From an uncultured Gammaproteobacteria bacterium (lineage in GTDB: Bacteria > Patescibacteriota > Patescibacteriia > Magasanikbacterales > GWA2-37-8), in the NCBI GenBank assembly GCA_964634875.1, contig CAZWKA010000005.1:27167-91166 (forward strand): a stretch of DNA of 64,000 nucleotides. Reading direction: 5' to 3'. The notes below the pieces were generated by a model. The model saw nothing but the letters and a program-made list of their open reading frames with translations, was not told where the DNA came from and searched no databases. Made by a program: the position numbers and the translations under genes. Positions 1,059-63,324 of the stretch are shown in pieces. Positions within the stretch are counted from its first letter, which is position 1, and the number at the start of each line of letters is the position of its first letter.

Positions 1059-2168
1059 ATGTCCAAAGATTATTACAAAATTCTCGGTATCGACAAAAAC
1101 GCTTCGACCGATGAAGTAAAGAAAGCGTTCAAAAAAGCCGCGATGCAGCATCACCCGGATAAACCGACCGGGAACGAGGCAAAGTTCAAGGAAGCCAATG
1201 AGGCCTATCAGATTTTGTCCGACAAAGAAAAGCGTGCCCGTTATGATCAGTTTGGTTCTGACTTTGAACAGCAGGGTGGTTTTGGTGGTGGCATGAGTTG
1301 GGAAGATTTGATGCGCGCTTCACGCGGCCAAGGTGGCCAGGGCGGCGGATTTGAATTTAATTTTGGCGGACAAGATTTTGGGGATATTTTTGGCGACCTG
1401 TTTGGTATGGGTGGTGGACGGAGTCGTGGCAGTGCTCGTCAGTCACGTGGCCGCGATATTCAGGTTGATGTCGAACTCGATTTCAAAGAAGCGGCGTTTG
1501 GCGTGGAGCGTGATGTGCGTTTGCGCAAGCAAGATACGTGTGACGTCTGTAAAGGAAATGGTGCTGAGCCGGGCACTAGCATGGAAAAGTGTGAAACATG
1601 TAAGGGTCAGGGGCAGGTGGTGCAAAACCAGCGCACGTTCTTGGGGAATATGCAGACAGTGGCGACTTGTCCGACGTGCCAAGGGCGCGGCGAACATTCG
1701 ACAAAGAAATGCAAGCATTGCGGTGGAGACGGTGTGCTGTCGAAGGAGTCGACAATTAAAGTAAAAATTCCAGCAGGTATTGATGAGGGGCAGTCGATTC
1801 GTATTACGGGTAAAGGCGAAGCCGCCCCGCATGGTGGCACGAGCGGTGACCTCTATGTGTTGACCCATGTTAAACCAAGCAAAGAATTCCATCGTGAGGA
1901 TTTTGATGTATATGTAGATAAAGAAATTTCGTATCCGCAAGCAGTGCTCGGCGACACGATCGAGGTGCCGACGCTTGAAGGAAGTGTAAAGATTTTGGTG
2001 CCCGAAGGAACCGAGTCTGGTCAGTTGATCCGTTTAAAAGGCAAGGGGATTACGCATCTTGGTAGCACGACTCGCGGAGACGAGTTTGTGCGGGTCAAAA
2101 TTCGGGTTCCAAAGAAAGTCAGTAAAACGGCTAAAAAGCTTCTGGAAGAACTCAAAACCGAAGTTTAA
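1059..2168 (+). CDS. dnaJ: molecular chaperone DnaJ
   Basis: N-terminal J-domain (DYYKILGI...HHPDK), a Gly/Phe-rich linker, and four CxxCxGxG zinc-finger repeats ([32 protein letters not shown]). Confidence 0.95.
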
Positions 2169-2197
2169 AATTGGCTATAATTAGCCAAAATAGTGCG

Positions 2198-2228
2198 AAA
2201 AGGCCTTGACAAAAGGCCTTTTTTGTGC
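2198..2228 (+). terminator. rho-independent terminator of dnaJ
   Basis: Stem AAAAGGCC / GGCCTTTT with loop ttgacaaaa, followed by a T-run. Confidence 0.6.
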
Positions 2229-2234
2229 TATACT
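2206..2234 (+). promoter_or_regulatory. consensus sigma-70-type promoter (TTGACA, 17 bp, TATACT) embedded in the dnaJ terminator and facing the GC-rich island
   Basis: TTGACA at 2206-2211, a 17-nt spacer, then TATACT at 2229-2234. The same -10 hexamer recurs upstream of several genes in this window. Confidence 0.5.
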
Positions 2235-2285
2235 ATTTTGTTCGTCAAACAGACGAATTTTTTGTTTATAAAGCTCTTTAATAAT

Positions 2286-2329
2286 TTCTTACGGTGGAAA
2301 CAGGGTATCCCTTGTTTCCACCGTAAGAA
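2286..2329. repeat. perfect 17-bp inverted repeat hairpin at the left edge of the GC-rich island
   Basis: ttcttacggtggaaaca ... tgtttccaccgtaagaa, with an inner GGG/CCC pairing. Lies 30 nt upstream of the GGAGGG RBS and the ATG at 2359. No T-run follows. Confidence 0.65.
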
Positions 2330-2358
2330 CCAAACCGTTCACTGGAGGGAATTTCGTC

Positions 2359-2910
2359 ATGAAGACTGAGTCTGTCCTCGAGAGTGCCCGCAACCTCGGC
2401 CACATCACGATCACGCTCGGCTTCGCCGCGTTCATCGCTGCGATGGTCGCGAGCGGGTGCGGCACAGAGCCGGTCGGACAGGGCGACGTCGAGGTCGCGA
2501 CCCCCGCGCCCGCGCCGGATCCGCGCTTCACAGCGCCGGGCAACCCCGATTCTCCGCCTTGCTTGGGCTGCGGTTACGCAGCCACGGCTGGCGAGAGCAA
2601 GTCTGTCGCGCCGCCTGCGTCCGTCACCGTTCCCAGCGGCTTCACGCTTCCGCTCGACCTCTCCGGCACGCCCCTCAAGGCCTACCCGGCCTACTCGGCG
2701 CTCTGCCGGGGTGGGGATGTGTCTATCCTCTCGGACTGCCGCAGCCAGGAGCGCGTCTGCACCGCTCCCGAGAACTCCAACGTGGCGGTCGGCTCGATCG
2801 ATCGTCTGTGGTGTTCCGACGGAACGCAGGTCCTCATCCTCATCTGCCCCCTGGACACGAGCGGGGACACGTTCACGGTTGGTACTGAGACCTTCGCTGG
2901 CTGCCGCTAG
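2359..2910 (+). CDS. GC-rich secreted lipoprotein (island gene 1), 183 aa
   Basis: RBS GGAGGG; signal peptide with lipobox (MVASGC); Cys-rich C-terminal half. G/C at most third codon positions, contrasting with flanking genes. The overlapping same-strand ORFs at 2384..2959 and 2457..2888 are GC artefacts. Confidence 0.6.
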   Translation: MKTESVLESARNLGHITITLGFAAFIAAMVASGCGTEPVGQGDVEVATPAPAPDPRFTAPGNPDSPPCLGCGYAATAGESKSVAPPASVTVPSGFTLPLDLSGTPLKAYPAYSALCRGGDVSILSDCRSQERVCTAPENSNVAVGSIDRLWCSDGTQVLILICPLDTSGDTFTVGTETFAGCR

Positions 2911-2946
2911 CCAGCCCCCCCCGAGTCTTCGGACACGGGAGCCCTA

Positions 2947-2971
2947 CGACCCGGATTAAAAACCCGGGTCG
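2947..2971 (+). terminator. GC hairpin after island gene 1
   Basis: cgacccgg attaaaaa ccgggtcg, immediately followed by the conserved AT-rich element. Confidence 0.4.
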
Positions 2972-2974
2972 CTC

Positions 2975-3010
2975 AAATAAATTTCTAAATTTTGTTTGGA
3001 AATTTTGAGA
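2975..3010. repeat. conserved AT-rich inter-gene element, copy 1 (AAATAAATTTCTAAATTTTGTTTGGAAATTTTGAGA)
   Basis: Near-identical to 4380..4414. Internal dyad AAATTTC / GAAATTT. Confidence 0.65.
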
Positions 3011-3119
3011 GTAAGTTCTTTACAACTTAAGGCTACTTACACTCCTGTGGTTAGAACAATGCTTAATGAGTCTTGTTTCAACCACGGGAGCAATCCCATT
3101 TCCTAGGGGGAAGAACACC

Positions 3120-4307
3120 ATGAATCAGACTTTTGCCTCTGCTTTCGCCATCGCCACCACTGTCCTCTTCGGCGCATGCGGCTCGTTGCCGCGGTGGGAG
3201 GATACAATCAAGGCGCCGGCCTTCCAGGCTGTGCGTGAGATCGTGGTCGCGAACGTCCAGCTGGACAGCGCCATTACTGGTACGGCCAACGGCCGTGTCG
3301 TGGTGGCCAAAGAGAAACTGTTCGACAAGACAGTGCTCCTCGGTGCACTCGAGAGCTATGACGTCGTGAGCGGCAGCAAAATCGCTGAGCGCATCCCGAC
3401 TGGTGACTGGCGCGAGACCTGGCACAGCGGCGCGCTCGTCGCTGGTGCGAAGGGTGAGGCTCTTATCGGCCTCGGCGGCGAGTTCCGGCAGATCAACAGC
3501 GATCTCGCGGACACGCAGCGCTTCGATCAGGCCTACACCTATGTGAATCCGGTCTGGACGCCCAGCGGCTGGCTCATCGGCGGGGCGGACAAGTTCGACG
3601 GTGGCGACTCGGTGAAGTACTACTTCAACGATCCGACTGGCGATTCGCCCCCGAGCTTCGCCTTCGACGGCTGTGGCTGGGTGCGGGGCATCGCGAAGCT
3701 GGGTCACACCACCTTCGCAGTTGTCTCGCGGCGCGATGGTAACGCCAAGAACTGGTTCGAGCTGCTCACCTTCACGAAGGGCGCACAGCACGTCTATCGG
3801 GCGCTCAAGACGGACACGGGACGAGTCGGAGGCTACTGCGGCGGTCTCCAGGGTCTGGAGCTTCTCGCTATCGAAGCGGATCGTGCTCGTGAAGAGGTTA
3901 TCGTCGTGTGGTCGTTCGATAAGGACGAGAACTACGAACTCCACGTTACGGCGTTCTCTGAGGACGGCCGGTTGCTGCGGGATCAGAAGCTTCTTTCCCG
4001 CTACGAGCGCGTGTATGCGGCCAAGATCTTCCGTGGGGGAGTCGCTGTCGTCGGGCTGAGCAAGCTCGGCGCTGGTGGCTTCACGCTCAAGCTGATCTCG
4101 ACCGACAGCACCATCAAGGAAGGCGAGGCAATCCCAAATAAGGATGTTGACTCGGTGAGTTCCTTCCGGATCGCCCAGGCTGACCCGAGTCACCTGGTGG
4201 TCGCCTACACCTCGCCGAGTCGGACGGCTGCCCAGGTTCGCTCCACGGTTCTCAAGGTCTACGACCTTGGACCGGGCCCGGGAGACGAGCCGCTCCACCT
4301 CGAGTAG
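3120..4307 (+). CDS. GC-rich secreted lipoprotein (island gene 2), ~395 aa
   Basis: RBS AGGGGG then ATG at 3120 (MNQTFASAFAIATTVLFGACGS; lipobox LFGAC). The track ORF starts further upstream at 3066. The antisense ORF 3078..4298 is a typical high-GC artefact. Confidence 0.6.
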   Translation: MNQTFASAFAIATTVLFGACGSLPRWEDTIKAPAFQAVREIVVANVQLDSAITGTANGRVVVAKEKLFDKTVLLGALESYDVVSGSKIAERIPTGDWRETWHSGALVAGAKGEALIGLGGEFRQINSDLADTQRFDQAYTYVNPVWTPSGWLIGGADKFDGGDSVKYYFNDPTGDSPPSFAFDGCGWVRGIAKLGHTTFAVVSRRDGNAKNWFELLTFTKGAQHVYRALKTDTGRVGGYCGGLQGLELLAIEADRAREEVIVVWSFDKDENYELHVTAFSEDGRLLRDQKLLSRYERVYAAKIFRGGVAVVGLSKLGAGGFTLKLISTDSTIKEGEAIPNKDVDSVSSFRIAQADPSHLVVAYTSPSRTAAQVRSTVLKVYDLGPGPGDEPLHLE

Positions 4308-4350
4308 CCTTCCCCCTCATCTCTTCCGCGCTTCGGCGCGCTCGAGACCA

Positions 4351-4375
4351 ACGCCCGCGATTCACTCGCGGGCGT
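4351..4375 (+). terminator. GC hairpin after island gene 2
   Basis: acgcccgcg attcact cgcgggcgt, followed by copy 2 of the AT-rich element. Confidence 0.4.
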
Positions 4376-4379
4376 CTTC

Positions 4380-4414
4380 AATTAAATTTCTAAATTTTAT
4401 TGGAAATTTTGAGA
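4380..4414. repeat. conserved AT-rich inter-gene element, copy 2 (AATTAAATTTCTAAATTTTATTGGAAATTTTGAGA)
   Basis: Roughly 31 of 35 positions match copy 1, with the same position relative to the preceding GC hairpin. Confidence 0.65.
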
Positions 4415-4428
4415 AGCATTATAACGCT

Positions 4429-4455
4429 AACACCTTTACAAAAGGTGTTTTTTGT
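4429..4455 (+). terminator. rho-independent terminator
   Basis: aacaccttt aca aaaggtgtt followed by TTTTTT. Confidence 0.5.
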
Positions 4456-4513
4456 TATCTACTACTTTAGTCTTTAAGTCTCTGCAACGCCCACTTGTCG
4501 GAGGAAATGCAAC

Positions 4514-5701
4514 ATGCATGTTTTTCGAATCATTGGTTGGTTACTGCCCGCGTGTCTTTCTGCGTGTGGCGAACCGGGTATGACCCCAGGTGCTGCTGAC
4601 CTGCCTCCCTCGGGCGATGAGCGTGGGTGTCAGTCCTTTGGTAATGAGGTTGTTGTCCGGGATGTGCCCCTCGGCGAGACGTATCGTATCGCTGCCTTGG
4701 CGAACAGCTACCTGGTCGCCTGGCACACGAATACCCGCGATGTTCCGAGGGAAGTTAACTTCCACCTGTTTGGTCTTGGCGGAGAGGCTGTCACCACGAA
4801 CCCAGTCACGATCCCGCATGGTGAGGTTGATCTCAATTTCGTGATCGCCGGCAAGGACGGGCGTTACTACGTCCAGACGGTCGAGTCGGTGGCCGGCCGG
4901 CCGTTGTATTGGCTGCATGCGTTATCGCCCGAAGACACTACCTCCATCGTTTCGGCACCGCTCACTGAGAACATGAATGTCTCGGGGATGGCTGTTAGTC
5001 CCTGGGGCCTCCTGGCTGTTTCTGGTAGTTCGACGGCGGAAGAGAGTAGCTACGCCGTTTCGACGGTGGATGAAAAAGCTACCCTGACTCATTTCGCTGA
5101 GATCCGTGAGGCGGGCACGACGTGTCCGGTCGTATCTGCGGTTGCCGCGAGCCATAATCAGCTTGCGATCGCTGCGGTGCGTGAAACGACGAGGGGTACG
5201 AGGAAGCTGAGCGTCATCATCCGTTCGGCAGACGGTTCGGTGAACGATGTTCTTATCGAGGAGCACCAGCGGGTAGCGCTCGAAGAGGCGTTCTACTGCG
5301 CGTCGTACGCTGTTTACATCAAGAAGCTCTTCGCCCTGCCCGACGGTTCGTTTGGTGTGTGGTGGTGGGACTATCGCGTCGCTGGCTACTACCTGACCGT
5401 TGTGTCGAACACTGGCGTTGCTGGTCCGGCGCGTCGAATCAAGCCGGTTCAGTTCCCGGGCATCTCTGATTTGGCTTGGGTGGAAGGTGATTTCGTTGCC
5501 AGCGTCTACCAGTACAACGGTCGGCCCGATGAAGTCGGTATTCTGCGTCTGCAGCTTGACCTGGAGGTTGAGACGAGCGACTACCTGAAGCTGGGCATCG
5601 ATAGTTGGGAGGCACCAAAGATCGCTTCCACAGGGCGACACTTGGCCGTCGTGCGCAATTCGCTTGAGTCACCCGCGGTCTACTTTCTCGCCTGCCGTTA
5701 G
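4514..5701 (+). CDS. GC-rich secreted lipoprotein (island gene 3), 395 aa
   Basis: RBS GGAGG; signal peptide with lipobox (LSACG); GC-rich codons; the antisense ORFs here are artefacts. Confidence 0.6.
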   Translation: MHVFRIIGWLLPACLSACGEPGMTPGAADLPPSGDERGCQSFGNEVVVRDVPLGETYRIAALANSYLVAWHTNTRDVPREVNFHLFGLGGEAVTTNPVTIPHGEVDLNFVIAGKDGRYYVQTVESVAGRPLYWLHALSPEDTTSIVSAPLTENMNVSGMAVSPWGLLAVSGSSTAEESSYAVSTVDEKATLTHFAEIREAGTTCPVVSAVAASHNQLAIAAVRETTRGTRKLSVIIRSADGSVNDVLIEEHQRVALEEAFYCASYAVYIKKLFALPDGSFGVWWWDYRVAGYYLTVVSNTGVAGPARRIKPVQFPGISDLAWVEGDFVASVYQYNGRPDEVGILRLQLDLEVETSDYLKLGIDSWEAPKIASTGRHLAVVRNSLESPAVYFLACR

Positions 5702-5769
5702 GCGATTTTGGCAATTTAGTGCCATCCCCAATCTATATTGGGCATGCGTGCGGACATGTTGCCCTCCGC

Positions 5770-5810
5770 TTTTCTCTTGAGCGCTTACGTATTAAGCTCT
5801 CAAGAGAAAA
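5770..5810 (+). promoter_or_regulatory. long hairpin between island gene 3 and the ECF sigma promoter
   Basis: ttttctcttga gcgcttacgtattaagc tcaagagaaaa forms an 11-bp perfect outer stem plus inner pairing. It may terminate the island transcript or act as an operator for the sigma gene. Confidence 0.4.
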
Positions 5811-5850
5811 ATTGTTTACCCTGATATTTTTTGGTAAACTACAGATTGTT

Positions 5851-6363
5851 ATGGCTTTTACTAAAAATGATTTTGAAAAGTTTTATAACGATCACTTTGA
5901 TAAAGTGTATCGTTTTATTTTCTTTCGGATTGGCAGCAACAAAGATGTGGCCGAGGATTTGGTATCCGAGATTTTTATGAAAGCGCTCAAAGCGTTCGAA
6001 ACGTATGACCCGAAGGTCAGCCAGTCAGCATGGATCATGACGATCGCAAAACATCATCTCCTTAATTACTGGAGGGATCGTAAAAATGCGGTGCCACTGC
6101 CCGGAAGCGAGATGTCCCAAGAAAATGGTGTGTTGGATAGTTTTTGGCTTAAAAGCGCTCTGTTACAGTTTGGTGTCCAAAAGGAGAAATGGCACGTAAC
6201 CGAACTTTTATTAAAATTAGAAACAAACGAGCGGGAAATTGTAACTTTTCACTACCTTTTGGGGTATAGTTATTTAGAGATTGCTGAACTGCGGGGTCAA
6301 AGCGAAGGGGCGGTAAAAGTTGCAGCCCACCGAGCGATTAAAAAAATGCGTGATTGGTTATGA
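5851..6363 (+). CDS. ECF-type RNA polymerase sigma factor
   Basis: Sigma-70 region 2 (YDPKVSQSAWIMTIAKHHLLNYWRDRKN) and region 4 HTH (EREIVTFHYLLGYSYLEIAELRGQSEGAVKVAAHRAIKKM). The ATG at 5851 follows a TTGTTT...TAAACT promoter. The track ORF start at 5719 is a GTG extension. Confidence 0.8.
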   Translation: MAFTKNDFEKFYNDHFDKVYRFIFFRIGSNKDVAEDLVSEIFMKALKAFETYDPKVSQSAWIMTIAKHHLLNYWRDRKNAVPLPGSEMSQENGVLDSFWLKSALLQFGVQKEKWHVTELLLKLETNEREIVTFHYLLGYSYLEIAELRGQSEGAVKVAAHRAIKKMRDWL

Positions 6364-25043: not shown

Positions 25044-25124
25044 ATGCTTTTCGTAGCTTACCCCAGTTGGGTTGACAAAAACCCTAATTTAGGGTAAACT
25101 AAGCGGTTATTTATTCTTAACTCT

Positions 25125-27233
25125 ATGCATGTGTTATTTTCCAAAAAAACCTTAGTAACAGCCTTTCTGGTACTGGTTGGGGTAGCGGCCGTTGCTTTTG
25201 GTGCACCGGCTCGGGCGGCCACTACCCAGACTCAGGTAGAGACAGTCATTCGAGTCTATAACGCGGCTGGAATTATTACGATCCCCGAGGTAACACTCGT
25301 TTCTGATCCAAAGAACCTGACCCAGGCTGGATTTGATTATCGCAGCGGGGAAGTTGTCCCAGCAGCGCGGGGCTCGTTTTATGTAGGTGTGCGCGGCAAG
25401 ACACCGTACCTTATTGGAAATTCTACTGGACAAGGCGGTTTATACCGTTTAAAGAAAGTCGGAACTACAACCCCGCTTCGCCGTCTCGGTAACATTAACC
25501 GGAGCGGTGTATCGTATACACGTAGCGGTCTTACCTTTGGTAAAGACACAATTTTTGCAGTGTACGATGAAAATGATGCTACCTATTTTAAAATTCGCGT
25601 CCTGAGTGTCAAATTAGTTAATGTAGTAAAACTAGAAGGAACACCTACCATTACCGCTCCAGCTAACGACGCGGCAGTTAATTCCTCGGCTACGAGCGTT
25701 CGGGTGGCCTGGAACGGTGTCACAGGAGCTACGTCGTATACGCTTGCCTTGTACTGCACTTCTTGTGAAGCTGAATGGGAGCCGCGTACCTATGGGCTAA
25801 CGGGAGCTTCCCGCAGCTTTGTGCTTCCGCTTAATAATCTTCCGTCCGGAAAACAGTACTATTACTTAACCGTTAAAGCTTCAACAGGTAGAGAGACTAC
25901 GCCGGCTTCCTTCCCGGTGTACTTCACCTATACTAATGACACTATTTCAACTGTGGGTACACCGACGATCACTTCTCCGTCAAAGGATCAGGTGTTCACA
26001 ACCTCTCCGCGTACAATCACGGTTCAGTGGAGCAATAGCACTTCCGCTGTTCGGTATGAACTGGCTGTTGATTGTGATTCCTGTGCAGGCATGACCGGAT
26101 GGAAACGGTACCAGACCTATTCAGCACTCCCGGCTAATATGACAAGCCAGGCTGTTACGCTGCCTCAGGATGGCTCCTACAGTGTTTCTGTGCGTGCTTT
26201 TGATCTGCAAGGCGTGGCGAGTGATTGGTCAGAAAAAATTATGTTCCGCTTTGGTGCCGGGATAACTCCGGGAACATCAACTATTGTTCCACCTACTATT
26301 GTCGGCCCAACAGCTGGACAAGTCTTGACGTATTATCCCCGTGCTATCCGTGCTTCCTGGTGGAAGGTGGCTGGCGCGAGCGCGTATGAATTGAGCCTGG
26401 AGTGCCAGTCGTGTGAAGCTGGGACAGCGGGCTGGAAGGAATTGAGCCAATATACCATTAATAATATGGCTGGTAACGCTAACACACTCGATATACCAGC
26501 TGTTTCGATCGATTCTGAGTACCGCCTGCGCATGCGGTCACTCGATGGGGCTAGTAAGAAAGGCCCTTGGTCAGAGTATACGTATTTCCGTTTTTCCACT
26601 ATTAATGTCGGTGTACCGGTCATTTCTTCTCCAACCATGAATCAGACGCTTACCAACAACCCCCGCACGTTTGGGGTGATGTGGAACGCAGTCAACCAGG
26701 CAGTCAGTTATGTGGTTGAGGTAAGTTGCAAGAACTGCGCTACAACAGCCTGGGGTAAGGTTGATTATTACCCAACGATTGATACTAATCCCTGGCTCGC
26801 AATTACTGCCCCCGGTGATGACATGTACCGTGTCCGTGTGCAGGCCGTGGATCAATACAATAACCATACGGCTTGGTCTGAATATGTGAATTTCTCTTTT
26901 GTGACGACGGCGGGTATGCAGATTGCAGCTCCACGTATTACTGGCCCAGCGGCTGGTGGCGAAGTAAGTAATAGCACCAAACAGGTTTCACTTTCCTGGA
27001 ATTCTGTAGGCAGCCAGTATCGTTATGAAATTTTGGTAGAATGTAATTCATGCGGTACATCCAGTGGATGGCAGTATTGGAGAGCTTATCGCACTCCGGA
27101 CGCTTCGAATTCATACATTATTACCGTGCCTCAGAATGCGTTGTATCGGTTCCAGGTTCGAGCAGTTGATGTTGATGCGAATCGGACAGGACAGTGGTCT
27201 GAATTGACGACCTTTAGCTACCGAATGAACTAA
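25125..27233 (+). CDS. secreted protein with five tandem ~100-aa Ig/FN3-like repeats, each carrying a CxxC motif
   Basis: Signal peptide and an N-terminal ~170-aa domain. Five repeats follow, each opening (T/A/V)P.I..P, then W(N/S), Y.L, C.SC (CTSCEA, CDSCAG, CQSCEAG, CKNCATT, CNSCGTS), W, and a closing R..D...W(S). Confidence 0.6.
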   Translation: MHVLFSKKTLVTAFLVLVGVAAVAFGAPARAATTQTQVETVIRVYNAAGIITIPEVTLVSDPKNLTQAGFDYRSGEVVPAARGSFYVGVRGKTPYLIGNSTGQGGLYRLKKVGTTTPLRRLGNINRSGVSYTRSGLTFGKDTIFAVYDENDATYFKIRVLSVKLVNVVKLEGTPTITAPANDAAVNSSATSVRVAWNGVTGATSYTLALYCTSCEAEWEPRTYGLTGASRSFVLPLNNLPSGKQYYYLTVKASTGRETTPASFPVYFTYTNDTISTVGTPTITSPSKDQVFTTSPRTITVQWSNSTSAVRYELAVDCDSCAGMTGWKRYQTYSALPANMTSQAVTLPQDGSYSVSVRAFDLQGVASDWSEKIMFRFGAGITPGTSTIVPPTIVGPTAGQVLTYYPRAIRASWWKVAGASAYELSLECQSCEAGTAGWKELSQYTINNMAGNANTLDIPAVSIDSEYRLRMRSLDGASKKGPWSEYTYFRFSTINVGVPVISSPTMNQTLTNNPRTFGVMWNAVNQAVSYVVEVSCKNCATTAWGKVDYYPTIDTNPWLAITAPGDDMYRVRVQAVDQYNNHTAWSEYVNFSFVTTAGMQIAAPRITGPAAGGEVSNSTKQVSLSWNSVGSQYRYEILVECNSCGTSSGWQYWRAYRTPDASNSYIITVPQNALYRFQVRAVDVDANRTGQWSELTTFSYRMN

Positions 27234-55268: not shown

Positions 55269-56630
55269 ATGACTGCCAAGGCCAATCTTTCTTCGCTGGC
55301 TCGTCCTAAAAAGAAGGGCAAGCCCGTCGTTTCCAAACCAAAGGCAGTTTCGATCAAAAAGAATGCCTCAAAACCCGCCAAAAAACTTTTAGTCCGCAAA
55401 GCTGTCTCCAAAATAGCAAAAAAAGTTATTAAGAAAATTGCCAAGCCGGTGCCTAAAAAGGTTTTAGCAAAGGCGGTAAAAGAAGCGGTAAAAGGCCCAA
55501 TAAAAAAGTTTATCCCGCCGCCACCGGAAGTCGTCGTTGAGCCTACCATGGAGCAGGTGTGGGAGATTTTGCTCAAAGGCCGTAACCGTGGGTTTGTGAC
55601 CGAAATTGAACTGGGCAGAGTTATGCCCCGGCCTGAATATTACCTCGATTTGTATGAGGGCTTTTTGGATTTGACTGATAAGAATGGGGTAACGATTGTG
55701 GAAACTGCTACCAACCTCTTGGGTGTTTCGGGTGAGCAAAAGATAACGCTCAAACAATTTCAGGGTGCTCAGCCTGACATGGATGTGCCGTTTGACCTCG
55801 GTCAAATTTCTTCAGACTCGATCCAGATGTATTTGCGTGAAATTGGTAAGATCCCGCTCTTAAATACTGAAGATGAAGTATCGCTCGCAAAACGCAAGGA
55901 ACGCGGTGACAAAGCGGCAGAACGTAAACTTATCGAAGCGAACTTGCGTTTGGTTGTTTCGATTGCGAAAAAATTTGTCGGTAAAAGCTTGTCGCTCCTT
56001 GATTTGATCCAAGAAGGCAATATTGGTTTGTTCCGTGCAGTTAAGAAATTTGATCACCGCAAGGGTTATAAATTTTCAACCTACGCCACGTGGTGGATCC
56101 GTCAGGCGATTACGCGTGCGCTCGCTGATCAGTCGCGTACCATCCGTATTCCGGTGCATATGGTGGAAACCATCAACCGGTTCCAACAAGTCCGTCGCCG
56201 TCTTTTGCAAGATTTAGGCCGTGATCCGACTGTCGAAGAATTAGCTGCTGAAATGGGTGAAGAGGTGGAAAAGATCCAGCATATTATCAAAATTTCACAG
56301 GACATGGTGTCGCTCGAAGTATCGGTTGGTGACGACGATGACGATACGCAGCTGAGTGACTTTATTGAAGATGTTAAAAATATTTCTCCCGACCGCGCTG
56401 CCGCACTCCAGATTTTGCGTGACTATGTTCAGTCCGCGGTCAAAGATTTAGTGCCTCGCGAGCAGAAAATCTTGGAAATGCGTTTTGGTTTGACCGATGG
56501 CGTTACCCATACACTTGAAGAAGTGGGGCAGGAATTTGGTGTTACCCGTGAACGTATCCGCCAGATCGAAGCTAAAGCGCTTGAACGTATTCAGCAATCG
56601 GATATTATTACGAAACTTCGGGATTATTAA
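55269..56630 (+). CDS. rpoD: primary RNA polymerase sigma factor (sigma-70) with a Lys/Ala/Pro-rich N-terminal extension
   Basis: Region 2 ([18 protein letters not shown]...[13 protein letters not shown]), regions 3 and 4. Sits in the conserved dnaG-rpoD arrangement. Confidence 0.95.
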
Positions 56631-61814: not shown

Positions 61815-61834
61815 ACTTATAGTGTCTCCAAAAT

Positions 61835-61868
61835 AAAAACAACCTTATTCGAGGTTGTTTTTATTTTC
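61835..61868 (+). terminator. rho-independent terminator
   Basis: aacaacct tattcg aggttgtt followed by TTTTATTTT. Confidence 0.55.
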
Positions 61869-62005
61869 AAGGCTGCTCTCGCTCAATGTTATAGCGTGTA
61901 AAACACTGAGCGAGGTCGAGCAGTCTTGGGAGTTTTTTGCAGCGAGAGGGAGTGGCCAACTTGGTTTTCGGCCGCTCCCTCGTTGTATGAGGGGGTGAAA
62001 TTTGT

Positions 62006-63112
62006 CTAGGCTGGGGGTCCGAGCTCAGCCGTCTCCACGCGCGAGCTGAGGAACGCGCCCAGGTGTCGCCGGAGCGTTGTGATACCCGGCTTGATCAGCT
62101 CGGCATAGTCAACGAGGGCGCTGCCGATCATCGCATACTCCTTGGTCATTCCCGAGAGCTGATAGGTGGAACGCCCAAGCTTGAGCGGGTACTCGATCTG
62201 CTTCTTGTTGGTCGAGTGCCGAGCGACGTTCGGCTTGAAGCCTAGGTTGTTTCTCAAAAAGCCGAGCCCGCGGCTCGGGCGCTGCGAGATGTCATGCTCG
62301 TTGTACAGCGAGAGCTTGGCCGAGGTGAGCTCGCCATCTTTCAGAACCGTCTCAATGGCGTAGCGCTCTGTATAGACGATCTCCGGCAGAAGCGAAGGGT
62401 TGTTCATGAGCTCGTGGAACTCGGGCGGCAGAACAGCACGAACGCAATTCTCATAGAGATCGAGGTCCAGCAGCTCAGGACCGTCGAGCGGCTCTTCACC
62501 CCGCCAGATCGGCCGACCGAGCGGGATGCCGGTCAGGCGCTTGATCGTCTTCAGGATCGACTTGCGCTCCTCGTCGAGCAGGTGGCTCACGTTCGCCGTG
62601 AAGAAGGTGCGACCACGCTCTACCCTTCGCTTGAGCGCACCCCACTGCTGGATGATCCAGAGCGCGCCGTGGTCCGGCGAGATCGGGCGACCGTCATCGA
62701 AGGTCCAGCTGCAGGTTACGTAGTTTTCGGACTTTCTCTGCTTTAGGCTGAACCCGACGCGAAAACTCTTCGGGCCGATACCTACCTGATTCATGCCGCT
62801 GTAGCTCAGTTCCACCGGACCGTAGGTGACCGTGTCGCGCTGCCCCGAGAACGCGGAGTTTCCGACCCCCTCTCGGATAGTGTAAGGAGCGAGGTGATCA
62901 CCCGGCCGATACTCAAGGAGCCAGCTGGTCGGCAGGAGTGCGCTCGAAGGCTCCACCCACACGTGATCGCCCATGTTGTGGATCATCAGGTGCCGAGAGC
63001 CTGTCTCGTGGTGGTCCTCCGGCCGCAGCTGCCACTCACCCCGTATACGTAGGAGCGGCGTTGGGCTCGGGAACCGGACCTGGTTTGCGAAAAAATAGTT
63101 CTGACCATTCAT
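62006..63112 (-). CDS. GC-rich orphan hypothetical protein, ~368 aa
   Basis: Visibly GC-rich ORF with GC at third codon positions in an AT-richer genome. RBS GAGGAAAAG upstream of the ATG at 63112. The track ORF extends to 63211. The plus-strand ORFs inside it are artefacts. Confidence 0.55.
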   Translation of the reverse strand: MNGQNYFFANQVRFPSPTPLLRIRGEWQLRPEDHHETGSRHLMIHNMGDHVWVEPSSALLPTSWLLEYRPGDHLAPYTIREGVGNSAFSGQRDTVTYGPVELSYSGMNQVGIGPKSFRVGFSLKQRKSENYVTCSWTFDDGRPISPDHGALWIIQQWGALKRRVERGRTFFTANVSHLLDEERKSILKTIKRLTGIPLGRPIWRGEEPLDGPELLDLDLYENCVRAVLPPEFHELMNNPSLLPEIVYTERYAIETVLKDGELTSAKLSLYNEHDISQRPSRGLGFLRNNLGFKPNVARHSTNKKQIEYPLKLGRSTYQLSGMTKEYAMIGSALVDYAELIKPGITTLRRHLGAFLSSRVETAELGPPA

Positions 63113-63291
63113 GAACTTTTCCTCTGCTCTCCCTTTCCATTCAAGGCTCCGGTCAGGGCACTGCCTGACATGCGGAGGAGTCTTGGTAACTCTCAGGAGT
63201 AGCTCGCGCATAACAAATTTATTGTGCTCGAGCTCATCCGGAAAACTCTTAAGAGTATACTTTTTAGATCATTTTGTCAATATACTGGGGT

Positions 63292-63324
63292 AAAAAACAC
63301 GACGTCGATTGACGTCGTGTTTTA
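63292..63324. terminator. bidirectional rho-independent terminator
   Basis: AAAAAACACGACGTC gatt GACGTCGTGTTTT, a perfect 13-bp stem, downstream of gpmA on the minus strand. Confidence 0.65.

Follow-up and report, generated by a model that had tools for sequence, protein, structure and literature searches.

Near the right end of the 64-kb window analysed here, the whole 64,000-nt stretch of contig CAZWKA010000005.1 to which all unmarked positions refer, a gene for a 368-residue orphan protein sits between gpmA and an oxidoreductase gene, and those two genes lie 1.5 kb apart. An earlier sequence-only reading, made from the letters and their open reading frames (ORFs), had described this segment as a foreign GC-rich gene bracketed by native terminators. 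We describe here the anatomy of the segment, the protein family, the structured leader RNA ahead of the gene and the variable neighbourhood of gpmA. In the direction of the minus strand the features are as follows.

63294..63323, unstranded: putative bidirectional terminator hairpin with 13-nt perfect arms, separating gpmA from the cassette promoter
63254..63280, minus strand: predicted sigma-70-type promoter, TTGACA-N15/17-TATACT/TACTCT, conserved with the sister cassette (TATTGACAAAAT...)
63204..63250, minus strand: 5' part of the leader, with a long variable hairpin, and with UUYUCC at its 5' terminus
63126..63203, minus strand: four-helix-junction core of the leader, in which P1 is GCUaCUCCN with SGGAGAGC and encloses P3, P4 and P5, with GA and AAA joiners
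63113..63125, minus strand: Shine-Dalgarno region (AGAGGAAAAGTTC), GAGGA being about 7 nt from the ATG
62006..63112, minus strand: coding sequence of 368 codons for amino acids (aa), GC 0.61, GC at third codon positions (GC3) 0.78, of a rare uncharacterised family
61946..61981, minus strand: 3' hairpin 1 (arms 61946-61957 and 61970-61981), a GC-rich stem-loop about 25 nt past the stop codon, with no U-run
61873..61923, minus strand: 3' hairpin 2, a 51-nt imperfect palindrome, CTGCTC...GAGAGCAG
61830..61867, unstranded: putative AT-rich bidirectional terminator hairpin with 16-nt perfect arms, an A-run and a T-run, separating the cassette from the oxidoreductase gene

The overall GC content of the window is about 46%, with two striking GC-rich stretches, one at 2001-6000 (GC 0.53-0.60), referred to as island 1, and one at 62001-63000 (0.61). 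The 1-kb bin at 62001-63000 has a GC content of 0.608 compared to about 0.42-0.51 in the remainder of the window outside island 1, and in 100-nt bins the GC content goes up at about 61900 and down at about 63200. The orphan coding sequence has a GC content of 0.608, with 0.61, 0.44 and 0.78 at the three codon positions (GC3 0.783), against 0.464 +/- 0.023 (maximum 0.511) for GC and 0.454 +/- 0.055 (maximum 0.586) for GC3 in 54 native ORFs; these differences correspond to z = 6.2 and z = 6.0, and the GC richness and GC3 bias seen by the sequence-only reading are therefore real. Its relative synonymous codon usage is uncorrelated with that of native genes (r = 0.08) and closely follows that of the island-1 genes (r = 0.87), which upholds the likeness to the first island drawn by the same reading. 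It also correlates (r = 0.83) with the housekeeping genes of L087, a 0.62-GC genome that carries a family member of native composition. This codon usage is compatible with transfer from a GC-rich lineage carrying the family natively, although it does not amount to proof.

The start of the coding sequence could be fixed by comparison with locus L003 of a sister metagenome-assembled genome (MAG), GCA_964540825.1. A longer ORF of 401 aa, starting at 63211, was rejected, since an in-frame TAA lies in the homologous L003 leader, 10 codons ahead of the start; this confirms the earlier choice of 63112 as the start codon, and the leader is non-coding because of the same stop. A 150-aa ORF antisense to the orphan gene (62294-62746, plus strand) is most likely a by-product of high GC, because the conservation of the family lies on the minus strand.

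In order to find relatives of the orphan, 1.84 billion cluster representatives were scanned exhaustively with phmmer at a cut-off of E <= 0.001. The scan returned 10 proteins, about seven of which are true family members, so the family is rare, with about seven members among 15 billion proteins. The closest homologue, P0002, is full-length with 43% identity (E 1e-91), and five distant homologues (P0003, P0004, P0005, P0006 and P0008) are 26-30% identical. A word-indexed search of 5.8 billion proteins found the identical protein only, on a 2.9-kb Logan contig (L001), and with the family profile it returned the orphan itself and P0006 only. Scans with protein patterns for more members found none in IMG/VR or JGI metagenomes, and tblastn against phage and plasmid collections gave no match. 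The seven true members align over their full length and share the blocks FPxLxPLxLL, LPxxW, W..L..RV..R, DL......LR..LPP, RGxAFL..LLG..P and AL..YA.L. Invariant across the family are M1, D216, L217, P229, F285, L286, L290, P294, Y336 and F354, nearly all of them hydrophobic or proline; the one polar residue among them is D216.

The remaining phmmer matches, P0007, P0009 and P0010, are large proteins built of repeats. Two of them, P0007 and P0010, carry PKD repeats and match in a C.W.F.DG-like stretch only, and P0009 has no Pfam match. Residues 97-142 of the orphan (..C.WTFDDG) weakly resemble the first half of PKD (Ig-like) repeats, but the family does not preserve the W.F.DG motif, and targets with so many repeats yield inflated E-values. 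With no Pfam PKD match to the orphan at E <= 10 either, this lead was rejected.

Searches for a known family or fold were negative throughout. Pfam gave no match to the orphan at E <= 10 and nothing for any of the seven members; PADLOC-DB v2 gave zero families at E <= 10 for the orphan and at E <= 1 for all seven members; PHROGs gave nothing for the orphan or any of the seven; and NCBIfam, searched with the orphan only, gave a single chance-level match (MamR, E 0.18). A profile search of PDB sequences returned noise only (E >= 0.3). The AlphaFold2 model of the orphan, computed from the seven-sequence alignment (pLDDT 75.9, pTM 0.70), has a beta-rich N-terminal domain at residues 28-143 and a helical hairpin at 150-194, followed by a small alpha/beta region and, at the C-terminus, a helix of 43 residues, and Foldseek of this model against PDB and BFVD found no match. 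Neither sequence nor fold (Pfam, PDB, Foldseek) resembles a recombinase, RuvC, HNH or a transposase. Judged by the model, the orphan is a real and folded protein outside every known family or recognisable fold. It has no signal peptide, the pI is near neutral across the family, and the protein is cytoplasmic. As the family has no conserved catalytic constellation, the orphan is probably no nuclease or other enzyme, and we infer that a binding, structural or regulatory protein is more likely.

The second conserved element of the cassette is its leader, about 140 nt overall with a conserved core of about 80 nt. Between the window and L003 the leader core is 80% identical compared to 58% for the coding sequence, and in distant members the values are 61-68% and 50-52%. 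Two blocks are common to the leaders of the members, GCURYUCCNGARRGU and GGAAASGGAGAGC, of which the latter ends 13 nt ahead of the start codon in four members; in L087 the distance is 14 nt. A structure was derived with RNAalifold and a hand-checked alignment of 5 distinct sequences. In P1, GCU(bulge)YUCCN pairs with SGGAGAGC, and its 3' strand lies directly 5' of the AAGGAG-type Shine-Dalgarno sequence; a GA joiner, the hairpins P3 and P4, a short P5 and an AAA joiner follow within. The closing N:S pair of P1 is U.G, C-G or G-C among members, and P3 and P4 show several double substitutions. Over the 20 pairs and 5 sequences, 94% of cells are paired and 7 of the 20 pairs are changed on both sides, compared to 33-60% paired in slid controls. 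The covariation score of 0.425 was not reached by any of 500 shuffles (0.23 +/- 0.04), and single-sequence fold z-scores were -3.6 and -4.9. The leader is kept with the gene in hosts with GC contents of about 0.44 to 0.62.

Run against about 690 kb of loci, a covariance model built from the leaders picked out family leaders only, with no other match in the window, and the motif was not found upstream of the island-1 genes. Rfam (4227 families) has no match within 63113-63203 at E <= 10. The leader DNA pattern was absent from JGI metagenomes and IMG/VR, and the covariance model rejects all 5 chance matches that an 18-mer scan turned up in IMG/VR. A structure supported by covariation and a position in the 5' untranslated region (UTR) beside the Shine-Dalgarno sequence are what is expected of a cis-regulatory RNA, and in the alignment of 5 sequences the leader has both. 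Transcription would start near its 5' end, and the UUYUCC at that end might form an alternative pairing with the purine-rich 3' block.

The flanks of the gene are also structured. Both pairs of GC-rich imperfect inverted repeats quoted for the 3' flank by the sequence-only reading were found, at 61873-61923 and at 61946-61957/61970-61981. The folding energy of the 3' flank, the neighbouring AT-rich hairpin included, is -75.4 kcal/mol, compared to -35.4 +/- 4.0 for shuffles (z = -10). In the L003 cassette a GC-rich hairpin occupies the same relative position, from about 20 nt past the stop codon and without a U-run, and the stems of the two are similar in sequence with paired substitutions (AGGGAGCGGCC/GGCCACUCCCU in the window, GGGCGGGGCGGCC/GGCUGCCCCGCCC in L003). 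An AT-rich terminator comes after the GC-rich 3' hairpin in both. Promoter, leader and 3' hairpin are thus conserved with the gene at its different location in L003. The hairpin at 61873-61923 is extra in the window; its ends, its 51-nt length and short flanks recur at L001 601-651, behind an unrelated 170-aa cassette, which is reminiscent of shared cassette-end elements, though without attC core sequences. The flanking terminators of the cassettes, compared with each other, showed a weak AACC...GGTT resemblance only, and no transposon-like ends or target duplications were found between cassettes.

Comparison of related genomes shows that the intergenic region beside gpmA is highly variable. 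In L003, which encodes P0002, the gene order around gpmA is kept, with protein identities to the window of 88% for MurG, 88% for gpmA, 76% for ApbE and 72% for the membrane FNR-type oxidoreductase. There gpmA and the oxidoreductase gene are convergent and only 2 nt apart, with no hairpin in the gap, and the P0002 gene (GC 0.61 and GC3 0.75 in a background of 0.47 GC) lies on the opposite side of gpmA, directly after tRNA-Lys(UUU). Locus L007, from Polish wastewater and river water (SRP286056; PMC9405806), has a gpmA 82% identical to that of the window over the part retained on the contig, and at the gpmA/oxidoreductase site it has a 156-aa signal-peptide ORF with its own predicted promoter and terminator and different hairpins. 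Locus L091, with a gpmA 71% identical and tRNA-Lys directly upstream of it, has a 75-aa lipoprotein-like ORF at this site. No family member was found at the gpmA-oxidoreductase site of L007 or at either site of L091. Between gpmA and the oxidoreductase gene each of the four genomes thus has a state of its own (a 368-aa gene, 2 nt, a 156-aa ORF and a 75-aa ORF), and the presence/absence polymorphism that had been proposed as a check exists. The gpmA neighbourhood is a hotspot with different, individually promoted genes in each genome.

These data bear on two statements of the sequence-only reading. A GC3 within the normal range and vertical, housekeeping-like synteny had been named as evidence against a foreign orphan; instead the GC3 is 6 standard deviations out and the 43% homologue is non-syntenic. 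The hairpins said to bracket the gene as native terminators are present, but they belong to the variable region and are not demonstrably native: the terminator hairpin at 61830..61867 is absent at the empty L003 site, and L007 has different ones.

The GC-rich ORFs of island 1, L001, L003, L007 and L002 show no homology among them when compared, and the islands are thus alike in composition, not in gene content. In island 1 (2170-5720) three GC-rich ORFs that are unrelated to one another (2359-2910, 3066-4307 and 4514-5701) form an array, and all have an N-terminus of lipoprotein-like or secretion type. Behind both the first and the second ORF comes a GC hairpin and, after it, an identical AT-rich direct repeat, AAATTTCTAAATTTTRTTTGGAAATTTTGAGA, with copies at about 2975-3012 and about 4380-4417, and a promoter, TTGACAAAAG...TATACT, precedes the first ORF at 2206-2236. 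The same strong promoter type (TTGACAAAA-N-TAAACT) is found at 25072-25100 ahead of a 702-aa ORF (25125-27233) which has no NCBIfam match. A third GC-rich cassette (about 0.6 GC) lies at L001 1-700, in the 684 nt just past the right end of the window, and encodes a 170/182-aa membrane protein directly upstream of gpmA, so that in the window's genome gpmA is flanked on both sides by foreign-looking genes.

The other family members are found in different surroundings. The member in L090 is partial and adjoins LepA, its GC of 0.41 matching the 0.39-GC genome, and the member in L087 adjoins DnaE, ThrRS and PaaX-like genes, its GC of 0.65 fitting surroundings of 0.60-0.62. The remaining members are on short contigs. 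In the window, L003 and L005 the family gene is far more GC-rich than its flanks. On L002, a 249-aa GC-rich (0.65) ORF at 211-960 precedes P0006; it has no Pfam match, and the entire 2.5-kb contig is GC-rich. The 1267-bp contig L086 (Logan SRR7658145), which carries P0004, has the same 29-nt palindromic sequence, GGAACCCCTGCACCCCACGTGGTGCAGGG, at both ends; a small circle or a tandem repeat could account for this, as could a REP-like element with one copy on each side of the gene.

The chromosomal neighbours of the cassette are housekeeping genes (MurG, MsrA, ApbE, gpmA, RpoD and DnaG). A second variable, defence-type hotspot is likely about 5-9 kb from gpmA, beyond tRNA-Gly(CCC) and a conserved PDDEXK_1 gene: L091 1-5600 has MazG-like, HsdM, DUF4145, SduA_C (Shedu) and HsdS genes, and L003 1-5300 has a PIF1-type helicase and a 0.66-GC stretch at 3501-4000. 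A Translin-family protein (PF01997), unusual in bacteria, is conserved beside the tRNA-Lys/gpmA locus (L003 8970-9545; L091 9175-9750). The gpmA of the window has two close relatives only among 185,579 GTDB species representatives, the next-best being about 55% identical and from many phyla, and the lineage is poorly sampled. The 453-aa RpoD at 55269-56630 aligns over its full length to the short RpoD model PRK09210 (370 positions), and in length and best full-length match it looks more Gram-positive or CPR-like.

Taken together, we favour the interpretation that the segment at 61830-63323 (about 1.5 kb) is a horizontally acquired, self-contained single-gene cassette in a hypervariable gpmA hotspot, encoding a leader-regulated protein of an unknown family, and consider it probable. 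On this interpretation the gene was acquired horizontally and lodged in the intergenic hotspot flanking gpmA. On the minus strand the cassette would run from an insulating terminator through a strong sigma-70-type promoter, the leader of about 140 nt, the 368-aa protein and two GC-rich 3' stem-loops to a bidirectional terminator, the promoter and terminators presumably being in use. Expression would most likely be controlled at translation initiation by the leader, which may sense a small ligand or the orphan protein itself.

Several observations weigh against this interpretation. The analysis turned up no donor, and neither an integrase nor terminal inverted repeats nor a target duplication was seen. 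The promoter and terminators are AT-rich and host-like, so local recruitment is possible instead of co-transfer. The evidence for the leader RNA comes from 5 distinct sequences only, the slid control is partly circular since the structure was derived from the same sequences, and 6 of the 8 P1 pairs are invariant. The minimum-energy folds of four single members prefer closure by the 5'-terminal UUYUCC, which could be an alternative conformer or simply ambiguity, and P0004, on L086, is without the leader.

A bolder interpretation is that the leader is a new class of cis-regulatory RNA, a riboswitch or autoregulatory element, dedicated to a family with a new fold, and that RNA and gene together form a promiscuous single-gene cassette that moves between bacteria whose GC contents differ widely; we put this forward tentatively, as a possibility. 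In its extreme version the leader RNA would be a functional partner of the protein in a ribonucleoprotein, not a regulator only.

The sequence-only reading had suggested that the orphan is a single-gene defence or toxin effector, such as a restriction endonuclease, an Abi protein or a HEPN or PD-(D/E)xK nuclease. A foreign, strongly promoted single gene in a variable hotspot is what such an effector could look like, many defence genes are orphans, and in L091 a restriction-modification/Shedu-type cluster (HsdM, HsdS, SduA_C and PDDEXK_1) lies 5-9 kb off. The searches lend this idea no support, however: PADLOC, Pfam and PHROGs have nothing for the seven members, NCBIfam has its chance match only, and the fold comparison that had been recommended for a nuclease or nucleotidyltransferase, carried out with the AlphaFold model and Foldseek, gave no match in PDB or BFVD. 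The R.4H pair pointed out in GSRHLMIH is not conserved, RHLMIH being replaced by TPFLLLH in the 43% homologue with no aligned R...H in the other members, and the family has no conserved acidic, His or Lys constellation. For HEPN there is no conserved Rx4-6H motif, all-alpha HEPN fold or profile match, and for PD-(D/E)xK no conserved E/D-x-K among the family and no profile or fold match. In none of the seven contexts does the gene lie inside a defence island, the neighbours being gpmA, LepA, DnaE and ThrRS. An anti-phage defence or toxin function, Abi-like or nuclease-type, is therefore doubtful.

It is unlikely that the orphan is instead a native, fast-evolving gene which descended vertically, was rearranged locally around gpmA and has its high GC under selection, for example for mRNA structure. 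A family member does adjoin gpmA in both sister genomes and the promoter is host-like, but GC3 is 0.75-0.78 in both genomes though the flanking proteins diverge by 12-28% with host-like GC3, and the orphan proteins are 43% identical compared to 72-88% for their neighbours. The absence of the family from the L007 site and both L091 sites, and the unrelated contexts of the other members in GC backgrounds of 0.39-0.62, also argue against vertical descent.

RNA and protein might also form a mobile module, in which the leader would be a non-coding RNA partner that mobilises the cassette, like the bridge RNA of IS110 or the omega-RNA of IscB. Consistent with this, RNA and protein are co-conserved across deep divergence, the cassette is at different intergenic sites, one of them beside a tRNA gene, and one member is on the 1267-bp contig with its 29-nt terminal overlap. 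The protein, however, has no similarity to a recombinase, RuvC, HNH or transposase, the cassettes showed neither conserved element ends nor target duplications, and the RNA abuts the Shine-Dalgarno sequence at a near-fixed 13-14 nt, as for a translational regulator, which makes a mobile module very unlikely. An assembly chimera or contaminant, with GC-rich reads mis-joined, is extremely improbable in spite of the metagenome-assembled source and the sharp composition change, as the separate Logan contig L001 is 100% identical over 2241 nt spanning both junctions (it may share the same reads) and the sister genome's own version, present in two assemblies, joins a homologous AT-rich promoter to GC-rich leader and coding sequence.

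Taken by itself, a foreign orphan in a variable hotspot is nothing unusual. What raises the interest of the acquired cassette is an extremely rare family that has no fold relative yet a confident predicted structure, together with a leader, as orphan riboswitch-like motifs are among the few handles for the function of unknown genes. If the leader is a ligand sensor, its ligand would directly suggest the role of the protein. The gpmA neighbourhood, furthermore, behaves like a landing pad for GC-rich genes that are unrelated to each other and promoted individually, and this raises the question of how insertion takes place without a visible recombinase.

Among known systems, the single-gene effectors of the HEPN and PD-(D/E)xK type (Abi-type) resemble the cassette in genomic style only, as an isolated foreign gene, and differ from it in that the orphan has no motif, profile or fold similarity to them. 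An integron cassette is likewise a foreign single ORF followed by an imperfect inverted repeat with conserved ends and a variable centre, and here such a repeat recurs behind an unrelated cassette. The core sites of attC are RYYYAAC/GTTRRRY, whereas the hairpin of the orphan cassette ends in CTGCTC/GAGAGCAG; furthermore, the cassette has its own predicted promoter, and the cassettes are dispersed around a housekeeping gene and not arrayed at an attI. A non-exhaustive check of the ORFs of the 64-kb window found no integrase or tyrosine recombinase. Riboswitches and protein-binding 5' leaders share with the leader of the orphan a multi-helix junction in the 5' UTR that ends beside the Shine-Dalgarno sequence, compensatory substitutions, and conservation across hosts that is better than that of the coding sequence; the orphan leader differs in having no Rfam match, 5 instances and a downstream gene that gives no functional clue.

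A close parallel is the phage moron, an independent transcription unit between otherwise adjacent genes, with deviant GC and its own promoter and terminator (PMC3594210; Cumby, Davidson and Maxwell 2012). The orphan differs from morons in lying in a bacterial chromosome among housekeeping genes, not in a phage or prophage, in having no PHROG or phage match, and in carrying a conserved structured leader. Like a moron, the cassette stands between genes that are 2 nt apart in L003, has a GC of 0.61 compared to 0.46 around it, and consists of a single accessory gene of unpredictable function. It has a consensus-level predicted promoter (TTGACA-N15/17-TATACT, conserved in the sister) and strong hairpins on both sides, and apart from its place in a bacterial chromosome the cassette resembles a moron.

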